A stretch of DNA of 58,597 nt, the filler included, from Diploschistes diacapsis (lineage: Eukaryota): NCBI GenBank assembly GCA_023645945.1. It is 4 parts of 4 records of this genome, joined end to end, with 100 filler letters (N's around TTAATTAATTAA, not from the genome) between each part and the next. Parts side by side here need not be neighbours in the genome. Positions count along the whole stretch, not along the records: positions 44,042 to 58,597 come from JALAIB010000600.1; 3 more parts are not named here. The stretch is one strand, 5' to 3'. The position numbers and the translations under genes were made by a program. Below the pieces are notes generated by a model. That model was not told the origin of the DNA. It did no database searches and saw nothing but the letters and a program-made list of their open reading frames with translations. This document shows, piece by piece, positions 14,589-58,597 of this stretch; the stretch's first letter is position 1, and each line of letters opens with the position of its first letter.

Positions 14589-14688
14589 NNNNNNNNNNNN
14601 NNNNNNNNNNNNNNNNNNNNNNNNNNNNNNNNTTAATTAATTAANNNNNNNNNNNNNNNNNNNNNNNNNNNNNNNNNNNNNNNNNNNN
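14589..14688. other. Artificial contig-joining spacer
   Basis: N44-TTAATTAATTAA-N44, stops in all six frames. Confidence 0.99.
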
Positions 14689-15476: not shown

Positions 15477-17502
15477 TCAGCCTCGTTTCCTTGGCCTCTT
15501 TCCCGTGTCGATGTAGACCTCGCTCAGTCTGGCGTCGTCAGAGATATCCTCCGGCGCTTCCAGGGTGCTCGTGACGATGATGCTGACTCTGTCACAGTCC
15601 GTTCCGGTCGAAGTGCTACGTGCTGCTAGCTCGAGAAGGCGCGGTATCAGCTTGTCTTGCACGTCTCCGTCTTCGTCGGGGAGCACCTTCTCGATGCGAT
15701 CGATGATCAAGAATATTTCTCTGGTGAGTGTCGCCAGCTGCGCGAAGATGCTCCAGAGTCGGTCGAAGTTTGTTGCGTTCCGGAATCGATACTCGTTGAA
15801 GAGGCGTGGGTGCTGAAAGGCCAACTGCGGGTGCTGGCTCAGAAGTTGCGATATCAACTTCTTTATCAACGTGCTTGGCGTCAGGAAGCGTATATCTGCC
15901 GTGTTGTTGCAAAGTGTGTAGAGCAAGGTAAGTTCTTGTGTACTAAAGGCTTCGATCATGTCAAGCGCAAATGGTGTGATCCATGAGTCTTGATTGCCCG
16001 AAGAGCCGCCGATCCATAGTAGAGTGCGGCATCCGCTGCTGGACCAGACGACGAGCTCTTGAAGGACCCCGTTCTCGTCCCACGTATCCTTGGGTGTAAG
16101 AGAAAAGTCTTGAGACCGTGCTCTTACGAGGTCCTCGTTGTCTACGTCCTCCAACGAAGGGCCCAAAGTCAGTATCATCTGACGAAGCGAAAACGCGTAC
16201 TTGAAGGACTCGAATTCGAGAAGTTCTATTTTGTGAGTCCATTACGGTTTTTGGGGTCTGGTGTGTACCTTACGATCAGTCCGAACTTGAATAGCGTCGA
16301 TCTTGTGATTCAGAAATGCCATACTTTGACCCAAAGCGGCTGTGGTGCCTTCGAGGTTCTGGTGAATTCGAGCAACGACTGCAAGATCGCGTTAGTACGA
16401 CTCTTCGATAAACATATCCCATGAAAATCGATAATGATATATCATTTGTCGAAGAGGAAATAGGGAGCAAGGTTGCGGGAGCCCTCCCTCATGTCGCCTA
16501 CCATGACCAGCATCTTGAAGCATATTATTCATGTCACTCTGCTGAGCTACATTCGCTACTGTCTTCAGAGAATTCAGACGGTCGATTGCGCGGTCAATGT
16601 CTTGAATTTGCTGATGAAACTTGCCTTCTTTGGGGCGGATGACAGCGTCCAAGAGTTTACCTGCGATGGTCAGCGGCATAATCCCATACGGAATTAGTCT
16701 CAGAGAAGCCCACTGAGTCTACCGCCACGGAAGTATATCAGCGCGTCTTCCAAAAGCTTGGTCAGACCTACATAGATAGAGGCCACTGCAAGCTTCATAT
16801 CATATGTAGGGAAAATGTTCTTATAGAAATCAATGACTGGGAGACGATCGACCAAGGATTGAATAAAGGATATTAAGGTGTCTTCGCGCTCCTTCTTAGC
16901 CACTACAGTCTATTGCCAGCAAGCACTGATGTCAGCGCGACTCGAGCAACACAACAGGTGAGCGACATTGTAGCGCATGATGCAGAATGTGCAAACCTTG
17001 AAAATAAGCATGATGACACCAAACGTCACAGTATATTCGGGACTTTGGGGGAGAAGTGTTGTCACTATGCCAGAAGCTTTCACCGCAAAGTCACAGAACC
17101 CATTGATGAAATCTGCAGTGCGTTTCTCAGCTACAGATTTGTGGGTTTTCTGCTGTATCTGCGCTGCAACTTCGTTCATCTTGGCTAAGACGGTATCGAT
17201 ACCGCGCGTAGCCTCCAAGTCCCTGATCTCTGCGGGAGTCAGGATGTTTAGTAAACGTTCTTTGGAGGCGAGGCATGTTTGATAAGCGCTTGCATAGAAG
17301 CTTCAACCCATCAGGTTCTATGTTCCAGAATCGTTCGGGTATTCCAAGCGTACCAGAAATCCGTTCCCGGCTCGTACCATGTCGCGCTACCCGTTGTGTT
17401 TGGCTCGGACAAACGACTTACAGCCTCCTCCGTCGTGCGGCGACTAGACGCGCTAAAGAGGGTGATGTGGTTCTCATCTTCAGCACGGCTTATCATAGAC
17501 AT
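15477..17502 (-). CDS. NACHT-like (STAND) protein, about 550 aa: N-terminal helical domain (DUF7708-like) plus degenerate P-loop, no C-terminal repeats
   Basis: Six exons splice in frame with GT..AG introns (junctions DF/CFYASAY, IFK/TVVAKK, GRL/SKLLD, GH/VVARI, TD/QLLEF). Contains FYKNIFPTYDMKLAVASIY, LLWIGGSSGNQDSW (Walker A position), LIKKLISQLL, IFLIIDRIE (Walker B position) and VSIIVTS. Confidence 0.75.
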
Positions 17503-29270: not shown

Positions 29271-29370
29271 NNNNNNNNNNNNNNNNNNNNNNNNNNNNNN
29301 NNNNNNNNNNNNNNTTAATTAATTAANNNNNNNNNNNNNNNNNNNNNNNNNNNNNNNNNNNNNNNNNNNN
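29271..29370. other. Artificial contig-joining spacer
   Basis: N44-TTAATTAATTAA-N44. Confidence 0.99.
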
Positions 29371-43941: not shown

Positions 43942-44041
43942 NNNNNNNNNNNNNNNNNNNNNNNNNNNNNNNNNNNNNNNNNNNNTTAATTAATTAANNN
44001 NNNNNNNNNNNNNNNNNNNNNNNNNNNNNNNNNNNNNNNNN
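43942..44041. other. Artificial contig-joining spacer
   Basis: N44-TTAATTAATTAA-N44. Confidence 0.99.
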
Positions 44042-44867
44042 TAATTTTTATTAATCGAGAAACCTTTAGACTTATTTAAATCAAATTGTTCTTATAGAAA
44101 ATCGAGGCTCGAAAGAATCCGTCCGGAAAAGCGACATTTCTGTATAAAAAAAGATTCCACTAGATCACGAAACTGAAAGAACAGAGCCTAACAATCGCGT
44201 ATAGATACGCTTTCGCCAGAACATTGCTGGGAACGTCACGACACATGAAATATATTAACAAAATCATTAATATTTAATATACGCGAATAACGATCTTCTG
44301 TTTTTCTCAAAAACATGTTAAAGAATATTATTAGAATACATAGCGAAAACATTACCTACATAATATAAGCCATATAGATATAATGGAACGGAGGAAAGCG
44401 AACGAACCATTAACCCGAACAGGTTTTCCGATATTTTTAAAAAAAAAGGCTTATTCTGCGTCATTATAACGAAATTAATTAATCCGAAAGAAAATGATAT
44501 CAAACCCGTTGCATGATAAAGCGACTTATAGCTCTTTAAGGAAACTTAGATGAAAGCCGGCCAGCGACAGGGACAAATTTATCAGAATTAGCCGTCCGGC
44601 TCGCGTAATAGTTTCCATAGATGAGGCTGCTTTGAAGGTCAAACCGAATATGTTTACTGAAATATAGACCAAAAAGATCAGTAAAAACGCAGGATTTAAA
44701 AGGTTAATAAGACTATAGCGACGAATAAGATGCGAATAGGTAAAGTATTTCAAGATAGGAAAAAAGACTCGATTTTAAACTCGGATCAAAAAACGGCGGC
44801 TACTAAACATTATATTAGTATAAAGCATCGTCGTTATTGCTATTGCGTACATCTATGTTATCTTTAT
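44042..44867 (-). pseudogene. RIP-mutated ferric reductase-like transmembrane protein (Starship FRE type), 3'-truncated
   Basis: Reads I-K-I-T-*-M-Y-A-I-A (reverts to MEITQMYAIA), KYFTYSHLIRR, VYISVNIFGL, RAGRLILINLSLSLAGFHLSFL, YKSLYHATGLISF, ENLFGLM, AYLYAI, LYRNV. Confidence 0.7.
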
Positions 44868-45299
44868 AACTTATCTAGAAGTATAAAAATATAAATAGAT
44901 ACCGAATTTAAATATGATAGAAATATTTTTTGAAACAGACTAAAAGGTGAAGAAGAGGAGAGAAAGAAAAAGGAAGAAAGAGATGGACGGAATAGTTTGC
45001 CGCTATAGTTCTATCTAAATCATATAAAAAGAAAAAATTGGAAAAAATATATGAAAGAGAAACATCGGGGTATGTTAAAGATATAAAAAAAATATTCAAA
45101 AGGAACTTTATGTTTCGTAAAGCTAATTAACCGCTTATTCGCTAAAAACCGCCATAATCTGTTTTACGCGTCAAAAGTATATTAAATTAAACGCTAAGAT
45201 CGAAAGTAAATGATTATAATCAATTACATAATTCCGATTTCGCGGGATATGTTTCCGCGGCCGTTAAAGCGTTAAGAAAAATTTTCTATTATTAGAACC

Positions 45300-46387
45300 T
45301 ATATCTCCTACGAATGAAAACCACGACCACCTAAATCAATTACTACAAGCTTTCCTTCCGAGACGGGTTAAGAAGAAATCTATACTACCATAAATTAGCT
45401 AGGAACCTCGGTTCTACTGTTCTACACGTACGTACCCGAGTTCTTCCGCCGACGAGGCGGACGTGATCGCGGAAAGAAAGTTCACGGCGTTATAATTAAG
45501 AAACCAACGGTCCAGACTTTCTAACCCGACAGCGCCGTTGTCCAGAACGTATTTTTATATAAATTCCATCGTGATAAAATCAAGTATTTTCAAATCCCGA
45601 ACACAATTCGTACTACTACAACAGGATTCTTGGCCGCCTATCGCCTGTCAAAAAAGCATCGGACGGGATTTAGACGAAATACCGATCTAGAGATTCCCGA
45701 TCTAGGTGAATAGGATATCTGCGCTAATGAGCGAGCTATATTCGAGATCTTGCTTATAAAGGTAAATAAGTTCTTCGAGTACCTACTTCGGTTAACTCGT
45801 CTGACGTGTAATTAGGGTGTTTAAATCATCTGTCGTAGGATAACTGTTAGCTATTTTTGGTCCGGATAGACGGAACTTTCGACCACTTACGCAAGAGATA
45901 GAAGAACGTAATCAAACATAACGAAAAAAGTTTTATCGAAATCGTATATTTCTAACGGAAGCACGAACCGTTTATATCGAAAACGTTATAGTATTAATAT
46001 CTTCTCGCCCGCGGCCTTTTAGTCGAAAGTCTTAAAAACAAAAAACTTATCGAAAAAGTTTTTTCTGATAATTACCGATATATAACCTCTTATTTTTAAC
46101 TCGTATTTTTTATCGTACTGATTCTATGGCGACGAGTTTCTTGTTTTAATATACTCGTAGGGTCTAACGTTCGCTTTAGTTGCGTTAACGGTAGTCAATT
46201 TCAAGATCTTGGGCCCAAATCCAAAAATGCGATTTCGAAATTTATTAATAATCGATTTCGACGGGCGTAAACCCTTCTTAATAGGTTACGAAGTAGGATC
46301 TTCGCTATTCTCCGTTATCGAATCATTAATTAGCCCGTCGAGATTAATACGTATAAAACGGTTCGATGTTCTGCTTTTTATTCCTAT
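45300..46387 (-). pseudogene. RIP-mutated degenerate protein-kinase-like gene
   Basis: Reads SSP*NQYDKKYEL, RFRYKRFVLPLEIYDF, SSVYPDQK*LTVILRQ, LIYLYKQDLEYSSLISADILF (catalytic-loop position, no HRD), ITMEFI*KYVLDNGAVGLESLDRW, AVNFLSAITSASSAEEL. Confidence 0.6.
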
Positions 46388-46685
46388 ATGATTTTCAAAA
46401 TTACTAAATTAAAGTATTATAATCAACAATTTAAACTTAACGAATAATAAAGAAAAGAAACAAATACTAAAAAATATAAATATTTATTTTCGTGCCACTC
46501 TAACAGCAACGAGGTTAATCGAACAATATATAAAAGCGGATTATTAATTATAGAAAGGGAACGGTTTTCGGCTGACCTTTATTGAGCAGCTATTTTAGGC
46601 GCCGAAAGCGATGTCACCCAAATAGACCAGTATTTAAGGTTCTTAAGAACTTCTAAAAGAAAGGTTCTTAAGAACTTCTAAAGAA

Positions 46686-49600
46686 ATGTTCTTATCGAAA
46701 AATCCGAGCTATTATTAGCGTATAACGCTTCGTCGTCGTTATATTAAAAACCATTCCGGGAAAAGAGGTACGCCTCGAAACTAAAAAGAACGTTAAATAT
46801 CGAAGTATAGCCCATGTGCAACTTTAATATCTATATTTTCGTTAAGAACCGGCCGGCGAAATCAGCGCAAAGAACGTGGAAAAGCTTAAAAAAACTTTTA
46901 AAAAAGATTATCGCAGGTTTGACGCAAGGAACCACGTCCCTGCCGTTATAGTTCAATAGGATTTAAACAGCGTTCTTATAATTTCCGGACTATCTCGTTA
47001 ATCTTTATTTAATAGTACGGCTAACGATTATTTAGAATTATTATTTCCGCCCGGATATCGTCTAGAATGCTTATACGATAGATATAAGATCTCGACCGTA
47101 AAGAAGGTATTATCGGTACCCGATAAATAATAAACGGTCGACTTTTACCTTATAAATATGCCGGATTTTATATATTAAAACTTAACTCTAAGCTGATCTA
47201 GACAAGATATTAGTACAGAAACGAAGATATACTTGATTAAAAAGTATTCGAACGAAAAACGACCGAATATTAACGAAATATATCGTAAGATACGACAACA
47301 TTATTTTTATAATAACGCGATTTTTAAGAAACGATAGAGGACGTGGTTAAATCGTTATAAAATTAAGAATTTATAACGTCTTTTATTACGCGATCGGTGG
47401 ACGATTGCGTTTAACGAACTTCTCGATATCGCTAAACTTTAAAAAAAAATAATATTAAACACGTTATATACGGCAATAAATATTAAGTACGATAAAATCA
47501 GCGTTCGGCTCGAGTTTAGAACGAATGTTCATTATATAATAAAAGATTTTATATTATTTACGTCGTATTAAAAAGATTTGGTTTCATCTTTTTCAGAACG
47601 ATAAAGATATAATACGAAAAATAAACCGAGCAACGGTCGTTATTTTATAATTAAAAACCTCTCGGACGTCGATCTATAATATAAGCTTCTTACGCGGTAG
47701 GATACTAAAAGGCGAGATTTTCGGCGCCTTCAACGATCACGAACGTCGCGGGATCTTCGAGAAACTATAAACGGTTCGTGATCTAATTCCTTTTTTTAAC
47801 GACTTATTTAGGAATTTATATTATTTAACGACGTTAGTAAATTACTTTAAATGATTAACTCCCGTATCGCGTCGAAAGACTGTCGCAACGGTGATACAAA
47901 GGATATTCTTTAACGCCGACGGAGTGCTATATTAAAACGCAGTAGACATTACAACCTGTACGTTAGTAGATTTAGCTCGCCGTTTTGCTTTCGGGTATCG
48001 GTCGCTTATTATTTTTATTATACGAAATTACCGGAAGCTTCCCAAAAAGCTTTTAAACAGAAAGCTATTAATAAAATTAATTACCGATATCGACAGAACG
48101 TTGCTTTATGAATTTACGTATCTGGTAACGAGTCTCGGCTTCAATTCCCCCGAGATCGACGAAATGTAAAAGTTCTCGACTTCAATAATTATCGAGACAG
48201 CTTCGGTGCATTCTATTCTAATTTTTGTGACAGAAGGCCCCGGAATGCCTAAAAAGAAAAAAAATAACATCCCATACATACAGAAATACGATAACGAGAA
48301 ACAATTCCTTTCGGTAAATCACTTGTATCGTGATATAGAAGAAGTAAAAGAAGGGATCATCTCTTTTTTTATTCGAAAGGATGTCTATTGAAACTTTTTC
48401 GATAGATAGATTCTAGACGAAACGATCACGACAGCGTAGGGGATGTCGAGACGAGTCCTACAAATGACAGCACACGCGGAGTAGACGCAGCTCCAACAAC
48501 GAAGAATAGAACAAGAAAATTTGGAGCAAAAAGGGTTAACACGGTTGAAGCAAATCAGATCAGATCACGAGCAATTAGAACAACAAATGCTAGAATAAAA
48601 AAGGTAATTAGAGAGGCTGGAACGGAGAAAATCAGAGGAAGAACAGCAAATACAATTACGCGAGGCAAGATTAGAACGATTAGCACGGCTAGAACAAGAG
48701 AAGTTAGAACAAGAAAGACTGACACGTCTGGAACAGGAGAGGGTGGAGCAGGAAAGACTGGAAAGAATAGAACAAGAAAGATTGGGGCGAGAAAGACTGG
48801 AAAGAATGGAACAAGAAAATTTAGAGCAGGAAGGGCTGGCACGGTTGAGGCAAATTAGATCAGATCACGAGCAATTAGAACAACAAATGCTGGAACAAAA
48901 AAGGCAATTAGAGAAGCTGGAACGGAAAAAATCAGAAAAAGAACAATAAATATAATTACGCGAGGCAAGATTAGAACGATTAGCACGACTAGAACAAGAG
49001 ATGTTAGAACAAGAAAGACTAGCACGTCTGGAACAGGAGAGGCTGGAGCAGGAGAGGATGGAGTAGGAAAGACTGGAAAGAATAAAACAAGAAAGATTCG
49101 AGCAAGAAAGAGTGGAGAGAATCGAACAAGAAAGGCTACAACAAGAAAGATTAAAACGAGAAAGATTAAAAAGAATAAAACAAAAGAGGCTGGAACAGGA
49201 AAGATTAAGACGAGAAAGACTAGAAAGAATAAAATAAGAACGACTCGACCAGAACAAGGCTAAAGTTCCCCAAAATAAAACCTTAAAAAAAGAATAAACG
49301 GAAGAAAAAGAACGTAGAATCCAGCAAAATAAACTATTCGATCCAAAAACTTCTACTTTAAAAATAACGATCTTGGAAGATCCGGAAGAAACTACTGGCT
49401 ATAAGCGGAAAACGCTATTAAATATGGCGAAGCTCTTGGGCCACTCGAGCTCGACCAGCGAAAACCCTCCTAGAAAAACTAACGACCACAGAAAACTACA
49501 GAATCCAACTATAACCTCTAACCACTCTCTAGCGCAACCATACGAATTACAGGACGCAGCCGCATCCGCAGTCCCATCTTCGCCGCCCGTTCCAGATCCA

Positions 49601-49995
49601 GCCGGTGCACTCCTAAATGAAGCTCATTTTATCAAAAACATAATCCCCGTCCGATTTTAAACGCGATACCTTATCTCTTAAAAAACCGTTCGAAAATATT
49701 AACAATCAAAAGTTAAACGAACCGCGAAAGACTTTATAATAAACAAGAACATACTCTTCGATACAGAACTATATATAATATTATTATATAACTATCTTTC
49801 GGTCGTTATTGCGAATAGGACTTACATAATCCTCGTTGTTCTAGAAGTACAAATAGACATAGACAATATATTTATAGAATCGGTAAAAAAGGTACACGCA
49901 AAAGTTCTATATTTTCACAAAGATACTAATAAAAAAAGGACCATAAAGAATATATCTCGACAGCATCACGAACGGAAGAAACAAACCTTATAACA
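46686..49995 (+). pseudogene. RIP-mutated DUF3723-like gene no. 1 with EQERLER coiled-coil repeat insert
   Basis: Reads VRLETKKNVKYRSIAHVQL, KNVEKLKKTF...RFDARNHVPAVI, LECLYDRYKI...DK**TVDFY (reverts to LECLHGRHRI...DKWWTVDFY), YSNEKRPNINEIYRKIRQH, and near the end VKRTAKDF...LFDTEL. Confidence 0.75.
48509..49110 (+). repeat. 300-bp tandem duplication within a Glu/Gln/Arg/Leu coiled-coil coding repeat
   Basis: 48511-48750 aligns without gaps to 48811-49050 (offset exactly 300). Shorter GAACAAGAAAGA units continue to about 49250. Confidence 0.92.
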
Positions 49996-52900
49996 TACGC
50001 CGGCTAGGAATGGAAAGATAAATATAAGGCATTTTGGGATTTAAAATAAATATAAGGTCTAATACAGGGATAGAATGTTCCATTCACGTTTTAATGAATG
50101 GTAGCCACTGTACTTAAACGTATGCCATATTATCTAGATTTAGCCGAAATCCTTCTTAACGTGTCTCGTTTTCCTTTTTTATAACCTGAAGCGCAGTCAA
50201 TCCTCGCAGAATGATATCCTTCTTTTTAAGAATCTCGTTGTTTCGTAACCATAATCTCGGTGACCCCAATAGGCTCGGAAATTTAAATAGCCGAGCCGAG
50301 ATGCTAATTAAATAAAGAAACGGGCTGCCATAAAGCTTCGGCACTTGAACTGCAATTTCAATTATGTTTACCGACGTTGAAGCGGGATTTAAGAAGTATT
50401 AGTGATATCTTAATCTCGGGAAAGTGTAATCCGCCAATTAACGATAATTACAACGTGCTTAATTAAATATTAAATAACAGATTAAAGATAGAATCTACCT
50501 TACTTACGGACCAGTAATGATGTAATTAAATATTAATATTGTATCACAATTAAACCTTAAATTAAAAATTAGGTCTTTTATTAGGCCTTAAAACCATCAT
50601 ATAAGGATATATAACGCCCGGGTAGCTAAACGTTTCTTATGATACGACATATTTTGCCAGTATTTAGAAGTATTTTAATTATTTGATAATTTAATCCGAA
50701 GATAAGTTAAATAGAATAGTATTAAGAATATATTATAATATTAAACGAAAATATATTATAAGGCGTAAGACGGTATACGATCAAAATTTATAAACATATT
50801 ATATAGATTTAGTATTATTCATTTTCGGCGATATAGCAGATTAATGAAACTTTGGATTTAGAAAGATGTGCGAAAGTAAAGCAAACGAACCTTGCTCTCC
50901 GGACGCGACGGCCTAAGGATGAGACCAGCTGCAGAACAGAGATTGCAGAAAGGTAGCTAAAGAGACAATACAGGTAACAAAAAAAAGAAAGGAAATACAA
51001 AAGGATAAGAAACTTAAGCAATATAAAAAGAAAACGAGGGGATAGAAGGAGGTTGATATAGAACGGTAAGTTAACGCTATATTCAATTAAGAGGTAATTA
51101 AATCCAACGACCAATCCGGCGGCGACTACTAAATCTAAATTACCGTATCGTACTCAAAGCCAACGTCAAATACATCAGCGTATAAACCTCCTTAAATAAA
51201 CGTGACTAGCAAAAATCTCTCAACGTAAAAAGAAAATCGGCCAAAGAACCGTTATTACTATATCAGATTCAGCCCTTTATAGTTTTTAAACCTTATTAAA
51301 AAAAAAGACGTTCACTCGATCGAAATCTAAACAATTCTCGTTATAAAAAATTAATAACTAAAAGATCGTGTCCATAATAAAGAATAGAAAGAATCAGGAC
51401 GCGCTTCTTCATGCTAAGCATTCGTATAGGATATCTAAGCTTCTTAAATAAGGACGTGAGGGTAGGAATTTTGATCATTTTGAATTGAAGCTATAGTCAG
51501 CGAGCTGATCTTAAGGTATACGATTACGATAGTCTTCAGGTCAAGCAGTACACGTACACGCGGAAACCTGATACTAAAGTCTATGTTTGTAATTATTAGG
51601 ACACGTAGTAAGCGGGAATCAAAGATTCCTGAAAGAACCAATCCTAGCTGAATCAACGGAATCCTCGATCGGTTAAACTCATTCCAAGACCTCCGGGAGT
51701 TATTCTATACTTTGATTATACCAACAATCTTTCTAACTATGCTACCACCTCGCTTTAGCATGAATTACAATTAATTAATGATTTTGAACCTAGCTCGGAA
51801 AGCATCGAATAATCCTGACCTCATATCGTAACTTTCTACCTAAAAGTACATAATAAATATTATTTAATTAAAGATTTCGAATCCATCACGTTAATAACTT
51901 GTAAATCCGTTTTATAAAGCTACGAGGATATAACGTAATTTAAGAACGATATTATAGTTTATACTTAATGCGACTTCTTGGAATCGACGTCGACGATAGA
52001 ACTTTATATTTGTCCTATTGCGTAAAACGCCTGGCTGTTCAATACAATAATTCTTAAAACCCGATCCCCGAAACGAAGGATTCTAAATTCAAATGATACT
52101 CATATACTCCCGCACGACGTTCAATGAGATAATTCACATATACTTCGCAATCAAGATCACAATCCTTACATTTCGATTTTTTAAATAAAATATCTAATCC
52201 GAATTCAATTAAATAGATGTTAAAAGCAAAAAGACATATTATCGAAAATACGTCTTGCTAATTTGTATATAATTCTCCCATTAATGAAGAATAGAACTTC
52301 GAGGCATGTTATACAACGCAATAAAAATGACAACAAACGTTCATTACTTTAATCTTAAGGAATACTTTTTCGAAAGTGGTTTGAATTTCTTCCCTACCGC
52401 CGCTTTCCATAAAAGCACCTCAACTTTCTCATACTATAACGAGAATTTTTATCCGTTTCCGTTGTTTCTGATTGCCTGGCGAAATAGACATTCTTTTCTT
52501 CAAGTTCTTCGGACTGGTTTTGCACAGCCCGCAAATACGCCGATTAAGAGAATTATGGTCCGTCGATCCAAAATATGACCGCAAGTACTACTGTTTAACA
52601 AATCAATCCATATATTAAGGAAATGTATATAACGGTCTATCTATATTTTCGGTGCGGATCGAAAGGGTCAAGTCTTGGTCAAGATGCCGAACGTAGAAAT
52701 CGAACGGCGTAAAATAACGATAATAAGCTTAATAAACGTTTTTTAACAGGCCTACCGTTATTAATATCTCGTTATCTAAAATAAATATAACTTTCTCGAT
52801 ATTAAAGATCTTTATAATCTAAACGAGAGCGAGTTCCGGCAACTTATAACGAATCGTCTTTCGATAACGATATAATCCGTAACTCGTAAATTCCGATAAT

Positions 52901-55869
52901 TCATTTAATTCAAAATATAATCGTAAAAAAAATAAATTTATAATAATTTTAAAATTATCGTTTCGTGTTTAAAATTATACTAAGATTTATTACCCGAGGT
53001 TTTCGATCTGATTTAAATTATTTATAACCGCAGCCCCGTTAAAAAAAGAGATATTAAACCGTATAAAACTACCCCGATATTTCCTATTAACGTCGTTAAT
53101 GAAATTACGTTACTCGTTTTCGCCATCGAAGATTCCGCGAAGTTACTTATACGTTCGAAAAACGAACTTATCCTTAAAGATATACCGGAAAAACAGGACA
53201 TTTAATTACCGAATAAGGTCGATTCCCGTTTTTAAAAATAACACGAAATCGGGCCGAGAAAGCAACGATTAGATAAAACGGTTTTCCTATAAAGTTAATC
53301 GTATTAGATTATTTCGCTTAAGATCTCCGTTCTAGAAACTACTTACGTTCGATATATCGATTATTTCGAACAGATTTAGAATCGTTAATATATTAATCGC
53401 GATGCTGCGAGGGGTCTTACACGGGTGCAACAGAGGTAACGCGGCCTTTATAACTAAATCAACGTTGTTCTATTGGAATGATCTATATTCACGCTTCCCA
53501 CAAAAGAGGCTCATCTAAAATATCCTCGGGCCGCAAGTGCTTGTATCTTGGATCGTTAGACCAGCCCATTTTAATTAATACCGGAGGCCTTTATTGCATT
53601 TATTTTGTCGATCGTCTAAACCGTTATAATTTGAAAAGACGAATGTCGAGACGTCCGTAATGTTCAACGTTATAATTACTACCTTTATATCGGAACTCGT
53701 TAAAAAAACATCGAACATTCTCCTATCGTTACCGAAAGATTCCTTTAAATATTCCTCGAGCGCCCAAACGCTGTAGTAACCGTCGGAAAAGAAAAATTAT
53801 AAATAAAAACGATAACGGTTCAGAACCGTAAACTCACTACGCGGCTTTCGAAAAATTCTTTTTATTATAGCTTTAAAATGCTCGATCGATCGAGAGATAG
53901 ACCAGCCTTAAAGGAACAAGATTACCGCGATAAGTCCACTTAACGAATCTATTAATTATAAAAACGACGGCGTTAATAAAACTAAACCAGAACTCGTCCC
54001 GGCCACGAAATCGAATAGATCCTAGACCGCGCAGGTCTTGCCCAAACGGCGTTACACCATCTCTAAGAATTCGAGAAGTACGATTCTCCTGATTCCTCCT
54101 CCGTCGATGCTGAAAATAGAAACACCCGCAGTCTTAAGTTTTAACTACACGGTAAACCTACCGGACGAATATAAGAAACACGACTCGATTTTAAACGTAA
54201 TATCTATTATCGACATTTCCGACCTAAAAATACGAATACAAAATTTACATACGGAATAACGGCACGTAAAAAAATACTCCGGTATTTAACGAATATATAT
54301 TATATAAATCTTATTAATTCTTATGTCCGACAATTAATGTCTATTAATTTTAAAATTCCGGGCATAGATTTTACGGGAATCCTAAGTTTCGAAAAAATAA
54401 AAGAAAGTAATAAAAAAATCTTCGATACGTTAGTAATATTAGAAGGAAAGGTCGGAATCCTTTTCAACCTAAGCTATCCGCAACGCGCCGAGATAAAGAA
54501 ACTTATAAAACGTCTCGAAAACTTCTTTTAACGAGAATTTTGATCGAGGTTAGTCGTGATAAAGAAAATTTAATTAATCGTTCATTATATATAAATAACG
54601 GATAAGCGTCGAACAGCACCGTAGAAACAATAAAAGAAATAATCGCATCGTAAGGGACCCTTGATTTAACGGCTAGAACAAAAAAGCGTGTTAAATAATC
54701 TTAGAAGGCGATACTTGAAAAATGTCGCCGCCGGCTTTCGAGAATAAAATCGAAAAATCGAGTAAACGTTTTCGCCGTGTATTGTACAACCTAGCCGAAC
54801 AGAACCGAAAAATATAACGCGCTAAAAAAATAATAATTATTAATACGGATCTAACGTATCTACTAAATATATTTCAATAAGCTATTTAGCAACGAACGGT
54901 ATCTAATTTAAGAAAAAATATGATTTCTGGGAAAATTCAAGATTAATATTTCCGAGTAACAGTCGTATAGATCCGGTTCTCCTTCTCGAAGTAACTCGTA
55001 ACGTAATTTATTAACCTCGAATTAATATAAAGTCGAACTTTTTTCTATATTAACGTAAATAATGACGATTCGAGATCGGATCTACCGCGAGGCGCGAGAC
55101 GCGGAAGAATACTTTAAACAAACCCGGAAGTAACTGATTACGCCCTATAAACCACCGAAATCGTCCGCGAAAATATAGATAACATCGGCGAACGGAAAGA
55201 AAAGCCGCGCATAAAACGCTGTCCATAAATCGCTCCGCTGCGACTATCAAGCGATCCTATACGTCTTTTTCTTATAACAGTTTATATAATTAAAAAGTTT
55301 CAATAACGGTAATCGCACGTCGCTTTCCGTTATATACAGAAGATTGTCCGCATATATCGTCGCCCGATTGACACGTAGACTATTACTTACTTCTCGCGTT
55401 CCTTTCTTTAAAGGATTTAGCCTAAAGAAATGCGGTAATGCATTATCCTTGGCGCCTATTCCGGGGAAGAAAATCAGAGAAGGTTTCTATCTTACAAGAT
55501 CGGAAAACGTGCGGCAAACCCGGTTCAACCGGCTAACATCGCATAAGAATAAAGAATCGTCCGACGCCAATTATAGCAATATTACGTAAGAATAGAAAGA
55601 TATGGCAAATAAGAAAAAACGAACCGTGATAATTTTCCAGTATTAGGAATGATAAGTACTCCGAGTATTAAATGATTTAGGTCATTAAGTTTAAAAGTAG
55701 AATACCGCTGCCGAGGGTGTTTTACTTATTCAACATCGTTTTTTAGGCGAGTACCTATCGTCGCCTTTATTACTAGAAAGCATGGCTCGCAATTCGAAAG
55801 ACACGAGTTTCTTCATTTTAAAGTCGCTTAATTCAAGTTTCGGCCTCGATAGCCAACATATCGGTTCCG

Positions 55870-58400
55870 AATGTGATATAAAAAGAAATGTAAAAGAGTT
55901 TCTTTGACACGGTTAATATCGTACTATGCAACATCTCTTACGAGAACGATTCAATTACTGGTTGTAGAGGGCTGGACTATAAAAACATAACAAGATTGAT
56001 CAGGATCTTCGAAATAGAAAAATGCCGTCCCGAGACCTGGCCCGTCGATGCGGTGGTATGTCCAGTTATTCTACGTAACGCCCTCGGCGCCTCGAATCTA
56101 ACCGCGGACGATTTACAAAATGGAAGCGGGTTCCTGCAACTGCCGCAGGGCACCGAGGTCACTTGCATTCACGGCAGGCATCGACTGGAAACGGGCAAAT
56201 TCCATCTTCCTTCTACGAAGCGATGATAGACCGTAAAACTTTATTAGAAAGGCAAGCTCTGCGGACGCCCGGACGATCCTAACTAACTTCTATAAAATGT
56301 TCGCCGGCGTTATTTTAACATATCCGGGAATACGACCCAAACACGAGCACTTTTAAAGATAGAGAAATATTTCGTTTAATAAAGATACATCAACTCGTAG
56401 GAAACATCAACGGCGCGAATTACTAGAAGTCACTATTTAAGAACAAGAACAAATTAAACGACATATCGCAGCTTCTGCGAGCAGCATCGAAAGATTCGAA
56501 AATGGAAACATTCCTAACCGCGTTAGATTCGCTCCGTTCGTTTCGAGGTTTGTAAATAGACTTCTAGGTTAACTATCTCTACCGATTATTAACGCTTCGG
56601 TATCTAGAAGTAAGAAACCTGCTTCAACCTATAACGTATTCTGACCATCGATTTCAAGAAATGTCGTATTATTTGAACCTCGTTTGCGAATGCTAGACCA
56701 CGATATACGATGATAAACACACTAAAATGTATCTCGACCCGAAGACGGTCGCTTCTCTAGAAAACAAAGCTCCTTTTTATTCTTTAAACGACAAGAAGAC
56801 TTTAAAAGATCTATAACTCCAAAACAACTTGTTTCGCGAAATTAAAGACGCTGCTCAAAGGAATCGCATCTAACGAAACATCTTATCGCTGCGTTACCGG
56901 ATTCCTTCACTTCGAACGTTTCTCAAAAATATCAAATACCTAGAAACATATTTCATAACCGTTCGCGAACTGTTCCCGAAGAATTTCAAAGATTCGATAA
57001 AGGACGCGTTCACAAAGTATTATATCGATTAAACACCTAATATAAAATTCTATAACGTCGAGTATCGGTACGATACAACGAACCTAAAACAAAAACTTAA
57101 GATCGGGTATCTATAAATTTAACTATACGTCTTTCGTAATTTCACCGACTTAACCGACGTCCAGCCGCGAAAGGATGTTAAAAAGTCTAAATCTCTAATA
57201 AAGGATTATAACCCGATGGTTTAACAATTATTTATAAAGATCGTAAGAACGAGCGACTTCGAGTCGAGTTAAATACAGGTATTTATCGTTAAAGACCTTA
57301 TAAAATAAATATGCGAAAATTTCTTACGTCGAATCAACCCGATAAACTATTAAGGCTTATTTAACGACAAATTAGATCGAGATACTCGAGCATTATTTCA
57401 ATATATACGACGGTTAAAGCCCCGTAACAACGTAGTTTTTAAACCGCCCCCCGTCCTTTCCTCGAACTTATCCTAGAATTTATTATTAAAAAGATATTAC
57501 GGACGATCTTTCGAAGCAACGTATTATAATAACCGCCAATTTTTATACTTAAATACCGTATATAATCAATTATCGGAACGTCCGACGAATCGGACGTATA
57601 ATATAATAGAATTCGCGGTCTAAAAAGAAATAATTTTCGTATTCTTCGGTAAACAGGTTTCGCTTTTGGCATAACCGCGTAAATTAAACGAAATTCCCGT
57701 TCAACCGAGATCGAATAATACGATATTCCTTATCACGTAAGCCCAAAACAGTCCTGTCGATACAGAAGACAACGCGATCATATCCGGGACCGCCGACGTC
57801 CAGACGATTAAAGAATTCAACGAAAACAATAATCTACTTATTAACGAGAAAGGTATAGACGAAAGTGGCACCGTGATCATATCCGGGACGACCGACAACG
57901 AAAAAAACGAAATAATTATATCAAAAACCGCCGATAATCGAACCAACGGTAGAAATACTAACAAAAACTCCGACGGGGGTAATGATCCTAGAATTACCGA
58001 CCCCCAGGCTAACGATAGTAATACCGTTGCTGCAATAACAAGCGAGATTATACAATACACGATACAACATCCCATTCGAGATTCTGGCCTTAGAAACAAC
58101 CAGCTAGCAATTATGAACCCTTCTCAACATAAGCTCGAAGACCTCTACTGGAAAAAGACGCTCTAATCGACGAGAAGTATAATACTAACAAATTTTATAC
58201 GGGGGTACGTTCTATAAGAAACCGCGTGGGATACCGAAGAGTATATAACATTATATATAATAATACTGATTTTCGAAGTTCAACCGGTTTTTATGTTCGT
58301 CTCCGACTTGACGGAAATCTTCGAAAAAGTAACCTCTTCTTTTAATCTATTTTTCTTATAAGAATCCACGGACGTAGATTTTATTAGAATTTTTAGGCCT
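55870..58400 (+). pseudogene. RIP-mutated DUF3723-like gene no. 2
   Basis: Reads RGLDYKNITRLIRIFEIEKCRPE, VTCIHGRHRLETGKFHLPSTKR**TVKLY, FKDREIFRLI, LDSLRSFRGL*, RIPSLRTFLKNIKYLE. The 3' boundary is approximate. Confidence 0.75.
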
Positions 58401-58597
58401 ATCAGCTAGTTCTTATTATCTATTAGGAACGCCTATAAACCGGATTCTTTCTTCTTATTTACTAATTTAGTACAAGCTTCTCCTTTCTTGAAACCCGATA
58501 ACATTTAATATATAAAAATATCGATACTGTTTATAGAAATAGAAAGCGACGGTTTAATAAGAAGAAATAGGAATTTATAAGTAAATAAGATAATAAG

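Follow-up and report, generated by a model that had tools for sequence, protein, structure and literature searches.

Question and overview

The locus raises the question of whether an AT-rich contig from a lichen sample is the wreck of a Starship transposon whose genes were destroyed by mutation of the RIP kind, as a sequence-only reading of it had proposed. The window, i.e. the whole stretch of 58,597 nt that was analysed, comprises four contigs that are separated by N runs (44+44) around TTAATTAATTAA at positions 14589-14688, 29271-29370 and 43942-44041. The analysis concerned the fourth contig (44042-58597; 14,556 nt), which is bounded on its left side by such a spacer. We consider it probable, at roughly 0.6, that this contig 4 is a derelict Starship-type fragment of a Pezizomycotina fungus, the genes of which were destroyed by RIP-like mutation. 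It constitutes a new case; wrecks of this kind have been described before.

Layout and composition of the contig

That contig 4 is a real, AT-rich contig, as the earlier reading had it, was confirmed by the N spacers at the contig borders and by a GC content of 35.7% against 50.5% for contigs 1-3. Contigs of the source run reproduce it independently (identity ≥ 99%, even depth), and both of its ends lie inside the AT-rich block. The gene families represented among the relics are fungal, and about 43% of the contig is without assignable homology. The best named matches of HIS4 were from Xanthoria (77%) and Elsinoe (76%), which do not fix the class of the host. The relics were recovered in the following order and on the following strands:

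44042..58597, unstranded: AT-rich block with RIP-type signature, i.e. the entire contig 4 (GC, composite RIP index, dinucleotides)
44393..44960, minus: tentative relic of the N-terminal transmembrane part of a ferric reductase (FRE), towards the left contig end (tblastn, hhalign, profile)
44961..46782, unstranded: AT-rich stretch without assigned content (six-frame Pfam searches without a match below E 1; related loci not matched by tblastx)
46783..47496, plus: DUF3723 copy 1, N-terminal part (contig frame 3; PF12520 profile 2-178, E 4.5e-38; tblastn; own HMM)
47543..48481, plus: DUF3723 copy 1, C-terminal part (contig frame 1; Pfam profile 180-397, E 1.2e-34; tblastn)
48400..49600, plus: coiled-coil-like repeat, rich in Glu/Gln/Arg/Leu, in frame with DUF3723 copy 1
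49601..52440, unstranded: AT-rich stretch without assigned content (nothing from six-frame Pfam searches at E ≤ 10, nor from tblastx against related loci)
52441..54282, minus: patatin-like phospholipase (PLP), Cys-rich (RING-like) stretch, patatin and C-terminal domain (frame -2; tblastn, aa 423-980 of P0031)
54584..55588, minus: PLP, N-terminal domain without Pfam family (frame -1; tblastn, aa 6-338 of P0031)
55589..55893, unstranded: short spacer from which PLP and DUF3723 copy 2 diverge (from the alignment starts; start codons inferred to lie some 250 nt from each other)
55894..56274, plus: DUF3723 copy 2, N-terminal part (contig frame 3; tblastn; own HMM positions 10-126, E 3.2e-18)
56304..57662, plus: DUF3723 copy 2, main part (contig frame 2; Pfam profile 87-508, E 5.2e-55; own HMM 192 bits)
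57663..58597, unstranded: probably the C-terminal end of the copy 2 DUF3723 gene (few stops in its frame; no Pfam match)

Identification of the gene relics

The two DUF3723-like genes of the sequence-only reading were both recovered, with PF12520 scores of 120, 132 and 188 bits against a gathering cut-off of 22. In copy 1 the two parts are separated by a 46-nt gap with a change of frame, which could represent an intron or else an indel; its C-terminal part corresponds to positions 219-427 and 481-569 of our own HMM and is extended to 48481 by tblastn. The coiled-coil-like repeat that follows in frame is in keeping with the coiled-coil Pfam domains present in some long DUF3723 homologues. It holds a 300-nt tandem duplication (48502-48762 and 48802-49062), whose coverage in the source run is roughly doubled and whose units differ mostly by transitions (24 of 27 differences), Gln and stop codons being swapped reciprocally. 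The frame of copy 2 is relatively open up to the contig end (24 stops in 777 codons at 55800-58130).

Besides the named genes, the earlier reading had left some relics without an identity. The largest relic of contig 4, which it did not name, was identified here as a near full-length PLP on the minus strand (55588->52441). A phmmer search against 1.84 billion proteins yielded 1,178 matches at E ≤ 1e-3 (best 2.5e-76), and the matched homologues, of 980 aa, carry a Patatin domain at E 1e-16 to 1e-23; the N-terminal domain also matches 30 other full-length homologues in tblastn. Patatins are marked by a Gly-rich loop, DGGGxRG, and a serine motif, GxSxG. DGGGIRR and GTSSG are visible in the relic, and we take them to be this loop and this motif. 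The Pfam Patatin model (PF01734) on its own gave E 0.0048 and 17.6 bits, below its cut-off of 27.7. For scans of such DNA the lesson is that Pfam nearly missed a gene that an exhaustive homologue search found at E 2.5e-76. Homologues of the relic's type are widespread in Pezizomycotina genomes.

The FRE-like gene of the earlier reading fared less well. A tblastn search with the N-terminal FRE ORF of a related locus (L024) aligned at 27% identity over 108 aa (44846->44529), with a collinear second piece at 44542->44396; hhalign gave a probability of 66% (E 5.6e-5) for the first piece and of 2.9% only for the second. A profile built from the N-terminal FRE exons of related loci scored 17.0 bits at 44529-44873 on the minus strand, against 1.7 for the best of 40 shuffles, whereas PF01794, PF08022 and PF08030 had no match in any frame of contig 4. 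The N-terminus of an FRE is thus weakly indicated; the match covers the N-terminal membrane part only, and the FAD and NAD parts would fall past the contig end. The kinase-like gene that had also been read from this DNA found no backing: six-frame Pfam searches (PF00069), a RIP-tolerant search for kinase motifs and a probe with the kinase ORF of a related locus (L036) all returned nothing in contig 4. An NLR relic was likewise not found in contig 4, either by Pfam in six frames or by probes compared with shuffles. The HMM searches suggested along with the earlier reading gave PF12520 matches on contig 4 and none for ferric reductase or for the DUF3435 captain (PF11917, six frames), and a probe with the DUF3435 ORF of locus L007 gave nothing convincing. 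Contig 4 may be the interior of an element, so that the absence of the captain here does not exclude one elsewhere.

The first 500 nt or so of the stretch at 49601..52440 may be the tail of the DUF3723 copy 1 gene. In the same stretch one minus frame, searched with phmmer against the 1.84 billion proteins, had no homologue, and the NLR, kinase and captain probes scored no better than on shuffles.

Directional mutation of the RIP kind

We took a RIP-affected region to be one in which, for more than 4 kb, CpA and TpG are depleted, TpA is gained and the composite index exceeds 0, and contig 4 has this composition over 14.5 kb. Its TpA/ApT ratio is 1.06 (0.77 in contigs 1-3), its (CpA+TpG)/(ApC+GpT) ratio 0.62 (1.23) and its composite RIP index +0.44 (-0.45), the latter being positive in 13 of the 14 one-kb windows of the contig. 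Observed over expected values show depletion of CpA (0.57) and TpG (0.47), and CpG stands at 2.01. The product index is modest: the RIPper tool applies a stricter TpA/ApT cut-off of 1.15, and the value for contig 4 falls below it.

The stop codons of the DUF3723 and PLP relics point in the same direction. The 1,919 aligned codons contain 70 stops (35 in 1,024 for DUF3723 and 35 in 895 for PLP), and these stops occupy 11 of 16 consensus Trp positions in DUF3723 and 5 of 8 in PLP, and 3 of 25 and 7 of 13 consensus Gln positions, respectively. Trp and Gln together take 14 of the 35 stops in DUF3723, against 41 of 1,024 background positions (P = 3e-12). At the well-conserved alignment columns where a relic differs, 69 changes (47 in DUF3723, 22 in PLP) can be explained by C>T/G>A only and none, in either relic, by T>C/A>G only; those fitting neither direction number 32 and 10. 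Many of the G>A changes are not in the classic TpG context; Trp codons that have turned into TAA are an example. The RIP-type inactivation claimed by the sequence-only reading is thereby well supported by dinucleotides, stop positions and the 69-to-0 direction count, and RIP itself would be the mutating agent. The mapping of stops onto Trp and Gln, combined with the count of forward versus reverse transitions, provides a clean test of RIP-type decay that does without a second copy.

Such a second copy had been part of the earlier reading, which supposed a once multi-copy element, and the analysis did not bear this out. The 300-nt tandem is the only self-similarity in the DNA of contig 4, no DNA is common to contig 4 and contigs 1-3, and of the 11 contig pieces that align at ≥ 80% identity in the source run, the only run containing the sequence, 10 match at ≥ 99% and one at < 90%. 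There is no diverged second copy among the 8 source-run pieces listed, with the caveat that assembled contigs can drop variants and that old copies may have diverged beyond 80%. The two DUF3723 relics share 22% amino-acid identity and no DNA similarity; they are old paralogues and, because their proteins are only 22% identical, did not trigger RIP in each other. A duplicated partner was found neither within contig 4 nor in contigs 1-3 nor among the listed pieces of the source run; a second copy that triggered RIP presumably existed formerly.

A recurrent head-to-head pair of DUF3723 and PLP

In contig 4 the PLP gene (minus) stands head-to-head with DUF3723 copy 2 (plus). The same arrangement was found, with a spacing of 182-281 nt, in 13 of the 28 related metagenome loci that have at least 1 kb of upstream flank of PLP. 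Some of the related loci (L024-L028, L022/L023) are near-identical copies from one project, which lowers the number of independent cases. Two further loci have two DUF3723 copies 3.4-3.8 kb upstream of PLP, and the remaining 13 have no DUF3723 nearby. Among the eight loci that were scanned for ORFs, NLRs (NB-ARC/TPR or NACHT/WD40) occur in three, FRE in two and DUF3435 within 10 kb in one (L007), the other seven having none; FRE lies within 10 kb of PLP in 11 of 41 loci. With 13 of 28 loci lacking DUF3723 and one of eight having a captain, the presence of DUF3723 and PLP genes is no proof of a Starship.

It is conceivable, although doubtful, that DUF3723 and the long PLP form a conserved two-gene unit, read divergently from a common spacer of some 180-280 nt, whose members work together; the layout would in that case have persisted on many unrelated fungal contigs, the wreck of contig 4 included. 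The pair might then be, for example, a membrane-attacking enzyme with its regulator or sensor, acting beside NLRs in a Starship-borne conflict or cell-death system, and would offer the first testable functional link for DUF3723. A search of full-text literature (text only, figures lying outside it) found no paper stating a divergent or head-to-head layout of DUF3723 and PLP, and we regard the recurrent pair as a modest lead to the role of DUF3723.

Origin of the contig

DUF3723, FRE, PLP and NLR are described as conserved accessory families of Starships, and at least three matches to conserved genes in one region without DUF3435 as a degraded Starship, in the relevant passages of Gluck-Thaler et al. 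2022 (PMC9156397). Contig 4 holds two DUF3723 genes, one PLP and a weak FRE within 14.5 kb, that is three firm matches and a weak one, with neither NLR nor DUF3435. By this working definition, as worded in those passages, it classifies as a degraded Starship, and a Starship origin is plausible. The region would originally have comprised four or more genes whose families accompany Starships: an FRE that reads on the minus strand and is truncated by the contig end, a long DUF3723 gene ending in a coiled coil, a PLP of about 980 aa and a second DUF3723 head-to-head with the latter. Directional C-to-T/G-to-A mutation of the RIP kind would then have destroyed all four, turning Trp and Gln codons into stops and lowering the GC content to 36%. 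Of the RIP-killed Starship interior proposed by the sequence-only reading, the accessory families and the RIP signature stood; the captain, expected as the first gene at the 5' end, was not found in contig 4, nor is an element end, a target-site repeat or an empty site visible, the contig ending inside its AT-rich block. The genes would have lain inside a captain-mobilised element.

These same absences are what a resident, non-mobile cluster of DUF3723, PLP and FRE would predict, or cargo left by some other event, which was never part of a captain-driven element and was mutated through segmental duplication or through RIP spreading from neighbouring repeats. The many related PLP loci without a nearby DUF3723 (13 of 28), the scanned loci without DUF3435 within 10 kb (7 of 8) and the wide distribution of relic-type PLPs in Pezizomycotina fit such a cluster as well. 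We still hold it to be rather unlikely, given four matches to a four-family accessory set within 14.5 kb, intact relatives that are flanked by the same families, by NLRs and once by DUF3435, and families that are, according to the portion of PMC9156397 that treats them, largely confined to Starship-specific clades. An ordinary cluster of retrotransposons or DDE transposons, in which DUF3723 and PLP were merely caught, would account for the large share of the contig that has no assignable homology. The earlier reading had seen no retro- or DDE-transposon motifs, and indeed no reverse transcriptase, integrase, RNase H, DDE or other transposase domain was found by Pfam in six frames of contig 4 at E ≤ 1, nor at E ≤ 10 over the stretches without assigned content. 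Heavily mutated relics of such elements could be missed, as Pfam also performed poorly on the PLP relic, and we consider this explanation very improbable.

The metagenomic nature of the sample and a composition unlike that of contigs 1-3 could also suggest an AT-rich organism or organelle, intact genes under another genetic code, or an assembly artefact. All three kinds of stop codon occur, however, on Trp, Gln and other positions, so that no single codon reassignment opens the frames; each of the three large relics has one frame change, the families are fungal, and the independent contigs of the source run reproduce contig 4. This leaves such explanations with hardly any credibility, and the derelict Starship-type fragment remains our preferred reading.

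Comparison with known systems

The closest intact counterparts are the metagenome loci (e.g. L020, L024, L019 and L007), which share with contig 4 the head-to-head pair at about 180-280 nt and have FRE, NLR and, in L007, DUF3435 within 10 kb; L006 and L007 also share the two DUF3723 copies. Unlike contig 4, they have open frames, normal composition and a different gene order beyond the pair, and outside the three gene families they show no DNA-level or tblastx similarity to it. In published work RIP was reportedly followed by Urquhart and colleagues in crosses of a known element, whereas in contig 4 it is deduced from the DNA itself, without the triggering duplicate. Low-copy giant elements that were mutated by RIP, as contig 4 presumably was, and also silenced, are attributed to Urquhart et al. 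2023 in the account given by PMC11162782, and the same account terms RIP-mutagenised Starship copies derelict or degraded. The derelict Starships of Macrophomina phaseolina and other Ascomycota, as characterised in parts of PMC9156397, resemble contig 4 in combining matches to DUF3723, PLP and FRE (the last weak in contig 4) with RIP signatures and no DUF3435, whereas contig 4 is known from 14.5 kb only, has exclusively pseudogenes and shows no NLR.

The lichen fungus Xanthoria provides a comparison from a lichen setting: preprint 10.1101/2025.11.25.690456, in the sections bearing on it, describes a Starship, Tangerine, with DUF3723, PLP and NLR, along with large RIP-affected regions. A captain, direct repeats, terminal inverted repeats and an empty site all belong to Tangerine, and none of them is seen in contig 4. 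Tangerine also has a putative RIP-degraded copy, and the same sections of the preprint contain the idea that RIP erodes Starship copies. Contig 4 would add one more case of genome defence eroding Starship-type genes, in a lichen-dwelling fungus, a setting from which such elements have only recently been reported.

Contents of contig 4

The window is not one sequence but four contigs of about 14.5 kb each, and because these are separate, arguments from neighbourhood across the spacers are invalid. In contigs 1-3, GC is about 50% and the genes are ordinary fungal ones. Contig 4, the whole of 44042-58597, was compared with them in GC content (35.7% vs 50.5%), TpA/ApT (1.06 vs 0.77), (CpA+TpG)/(ApC+GpT) (0.62 vs 1.23) and the composite index for repeat-induced point mutation (RIP), for which positive values are RIP-like (+0.44 vs -0.45). 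The index was above zero in 13 of the 14 one-kb windows of contig 4, with 48001-49000 as the sole exception. The observed/expected ratios within contig 4 (CpA 0.57, TpG 0.47, but CpG 2.01) indicate a loss specific to CpA/TpG and not CpG decay.

Features of the window (positions along the whole stretch)
14589-14688, 29271-29370 and 43942-44041: spacers, each 44 N + TTAATTAATTAA + 44 N
15480-16241, minus strand: NPHP3_N (NACHT-type NTPase) fragment, contig 2
18394-20250, plus strand: DUF7025 + AAA ATPase ORF, contig 2
21469-24068, minus strand: trifunctional histidine gene (HIS4), contig 2
29318-30433, minus strand: serine hydroxymethyltransferase
46783-47496 and 47543-48481, plus strand: DUF3723 copy 1 (tblastn, HMM)
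about 48400-49600, plus strand: Glu/Gln/Arg/Leu-rich repeat, a coiled-coil tail in the same frame as DUF3723 copy 1
48502-49062: 300-nt tandem duplication inside this repeat
54282->52441, minus strand: phospholipase relic, residues 423-980 of a 980-aa homologue (tblastn)
55588->54584, minus strand: phospholipase relic, residues 6-338 of the same homologue (tblastn)
55894-56274 and 56304-57662, plus strand: DUF3723 copy 2 (tblastn, HMM)

A Pfam scan of the six-frame translation of contig 4, with stops read as X, recovered three matches to DUF3723 (PF12520) on the plus strand and a weak Patatin match on the minus strand, and nothing further at E<=1. In a word-indexed homologue search the RIP-mutated DUF3723 translation returned a single protein, because the mutated sequence shares few exact words, and an intact match used as query returned 26; from these 26 intact homologues the two copies were placed by tblastn and HMM, with one frame change per copy. 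Aligned over 461 aa, the copies are 22% identical as proteins, and at the DNA level they show no similarity; judged by their sequences they are old paralogues. Coiled-coil domains are also present in some long DUF3723 homologues. The stretch 48001-49000 is the least RIP-like of the contig (composite index -0.15) and has kept many Gln codons. GC reaches up to 47.5% at 56000-56399, over the N-terminal part of copy 2, and mutation is therefore uneven along the contig.

By Pfam alone the Patatin match stayed below the cut-off (E 0.0048), and it marks the largest relic of the contig, a patatin-like phospholipase (PLP) that had been overlooked in the gene list drawn up from the sequence alone. When 1,200 residues of the minus-strand frame were used as query, exhaustive phmmer searching retrieved 1,178 proteins at E<=1e-3 (best 2.5e-76). 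The full-length relatives measure 950-1,000 aa, with the Patatin domain at approximately residues 470-700, are named in their sources as FabD/lysophospholipase-like proteins and stem from lichen-associated and other Pezizomycotina. The motifs DGGGIRR and GTSSG can still be read in the relic, the start of which lies about 250 nt from that of DUF3723 copy 2, in divergent orientation. At the N-terminus of this long PLP family lies a domain, about 400 aa in length, to which no Pfam family corresponds, and its homologue alignments contain an invariant Cys/His cluster just ahead of the patatin domain (window about 54282-54100, minus strand); weak RING-finger Pfam matches occur in P0030, a fragmentary PLP homologue.

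Direction of mutation

Conserved protein columns served as the stand-in for the ancestor, no second copy being available. Stops were found in the HMM alignments at 35 of 1,024 aligned DUF3723 codons and 35 of 895 aligned PLP codons. Consensus Trp positions had turned into stops in 11 of 16 cases for DUF3723 and 5 of 8 for PLP, and consensus Gln positions in 3 of 25 and 7 of 13, respectively. For DUF3723, Trp and Gln together make up 14 of the 35 stops vs 41 of the 1,024 positions overall (P = 3e-12), and a conserved Trp-Trp pair reads as two stops in each copy. A difference was taken as explicable when the changes in question turn some codon of the consensus residue into the relic codon: among the differing well-conserved columns, C>T/G>A alone accounts for 47 (DUF3723) and 22 (PLP) and T>C/A>G alone for none in either gene, whereas 32 and 10, respectively, fit neither direction. 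Between the two 300-nt tandem units there are 27 differing sites, 24 of them transitions, and Gln codons of either unit have stops as their counterparts in the other.

The placement of the stops and the directional changes form the pattern that would be expected from RIP, with the reservations that TpA/ApT is only 1.06 and that many of the G>A changes fall outside the classic TpG context, an example being TAA at 8 of the 16 Trp-derived stops. Two claims of the sequence-only reading are solid: RIP-type decay, by the dinucleotide bias, the Trp/Gln stops and the directional transitions, and the presence of two DUF3723 relics, by the PF12520 matches, tblastn and HMM.

Ferric reductase, kinase and other families

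A ferric reductase-like (FRE) and a kinase-like gene had also been read from the sequence. Neither gave a Pfam match, in the whole-frame scan of contig 4 or, at E<=10, in separate scans of the unexplained stretches. With the ferric-reductase gene adjoining intact PLP relatives as probe, the N-terminal exon aligned at 27% over 108 aa (44846->44529, minus strand), followed by a collinear second piece (44542->44396, minus strand; hhalign 2.9%). A 5-sequence profile reached an hhalign probability of 66% (E 5.6e-5) and, as an HMM, 17.0 bits at 44529-44873 vs a maximum of 1.7 in 40 shuffles of the contig; the single-sequence probe scored 8.6 bits vs a maximum of 1.5 in 20 shuffles. Since intact exons score just E 1e-3 to 1e-4 against the Pfam Ferric_reduct model, a relic without a Pfam match is to be expected. 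A regular expression for the FRE motif had no matches on contig 4; the motif belongs to the FAD domain, which would lie off the contig. What stands of the FRE-like gene is a tentative N-terminal relic, apparently truncated by the contig end. The kinase has to be dropped: besides the negative Pfam scans, a mutation-tolerant motif search had no matches on the contig, nor did the kinase ORF of a related locus when used as a probe.

Single-sequence probes for NB-ARC, TPR, NACHT, WD40, DUF3435 and kinase did not rise above shuffles on contig 4. The stretches 44961-46782, 49601-52440 and 57663-58597, about 43% of the contig, have no assigned homology: in six frames Pfam gave no match better than E 1 in the first and none at E<=10 in the second, the third had no Pfam match, the six-frame stop-density map discriminated frames too poorly to reveal further genes, and tblastx against the 41 related loci added just three tiny matches beyond the known relics. 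Pfam in all six frames found no reverse transcriptase, integrase or transposase domain on contig 4, in agreement with the earlier remark that retro- and DDE-transposon motifs are missing.

Related loci and the DUF3723-PLP pair

Related loci (L handles; n=41) were obtained by scanning metagenome contigs with a 5-sequence PLP alignment, and 28 of these have an upstream PLP flank of 1 kb or more. In 13 of the 28 (L014, L019, L020, L022-L028, L032, L036, L037) a DUF3723 gene on the other strand begins 182-281 nt away from where the PLP starts, and 13 of the 28 have no DUF3723 upstream. Because L024-L028 and L022/L023 are near-identical, about eight adjacent cases are distinct. The DUF3723 start lies at the same distance in L018 and L029, which have short flanks. 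Two loci, L006 (10-5172) and L007 (1251-6561), carry two tandem DUF3723 genes 3.4-3.8 kb upstream of the PLP, so that intact loci, too, can have a pair of copies close to a single PLP.

Pfam annotation of 36 ORFs from the flanks of eight loci retrieved: NB-ARC + TPR genes directly 3' of the PLP (L020, L024), a NACHT/WD40 gene (L019), the FAD_binding_8 domain of ferric reductase (L020, L024), a kinase ORF (L036) and an ORF of the Starship captain recombinase DUF3435 (L007, 22131-23051). In 11 of the 41 loci, FRE is found 10 kb or less from the PLP. With NB-ARC/NACHT-type (NLR) genes, FRE, DUF3723 and DUF3435 in their flanks, the loci family of the relics has every accessory family published for Starships and, in a single locus, a captain.

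On many fungal metagenome contigs the head-to-head pair recurs with a spacer of about 180-280 nt, with 55589-55893 as its counterpart in the window. In the running text of papers, full-text searches found no statement on this layout, and the recurring pair is the one lead worth following.

Host and copy number

Among named relatives, the histidine protein comes closest to those of Xanthoria calcicola (77% identity) and Elsinoe (76%), with metagenome proteins at 82-86%. By these identities, which do not separate the host class, the host is a Pezizomycotina fungus. The NPHP3_N and DUF7025/AAA ORFs of contig 2 lie in a normal-GC setting and have no DNA relation to contig 4; they may be NLR-like genes belonging to the same fungus.

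The single public run containing contig 4 is labelled lichen metagenome; two other runs from that study, X2 and X3, yielded next to no contig 4 sequence, and among the public runs listed no RNA run contained it. The public contigs of the lichen run stop at 44372, 47171, 51358 and 58256 with 19-nt loose ends, which we take to be transposase-library adapter sequence, a technical trait and not biology.

No DNA is shared between contig 4 and contigs 1-3, and the sole internal repeat of contig 4 is the short tandem. The lichen-run contigs cover it at an even depth of 41-54, approximately doubled at the collapsed repeat; 11 run pieces match at >=80% identity, 10 of them at >=99% and one at <90%, and a diverged second copy is not among the 8 pieces listed for the run. 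Since variants are dropped from contigs and the divergence of old RIP partners may have gone further, this is no more than absence of evidence. That contig 4 may once have been multi-copy we only infer.

Comparison with known Starships

According to passages of Gluck-Thaler et al. 2022 (PMC9156397), DUF3723, FRE, PLP and NLR are conserved companions of the DUF3435 captain, a region with at least three such matches and without DUF3435 is a degraded Starship, and 102 degraded regions with at least four matches occur across Ascomycota. Contig 4 falls under this working definition, and in both gene set and local layout it agrees with intact relatives. The sequence-only reading of a Starship interior is partly supported; in the strict sense of captain, ends and mobility, contig 4 would be a candidate Starship fragment. 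For RIP-mutagenised copies, a section of Gluck-Thaler and Vogan 2024 (PMC11162782) advises the terms 'derelict' or 'degraded' and cites Urquhart et al. for Starship inactivation by RIP. A 2025-26 preprint (10.1101/2025.11.25.690456) describes the Tangerine Starship of the lichen fungus Xanthoria, which carries DUF3723, PLP and NLR, together with large RIP-affected regions and a putative RIP-degraded Tangerine copy. RIP-wrecked Starship-type contigs are a known kind, and contig 4 is one more case.
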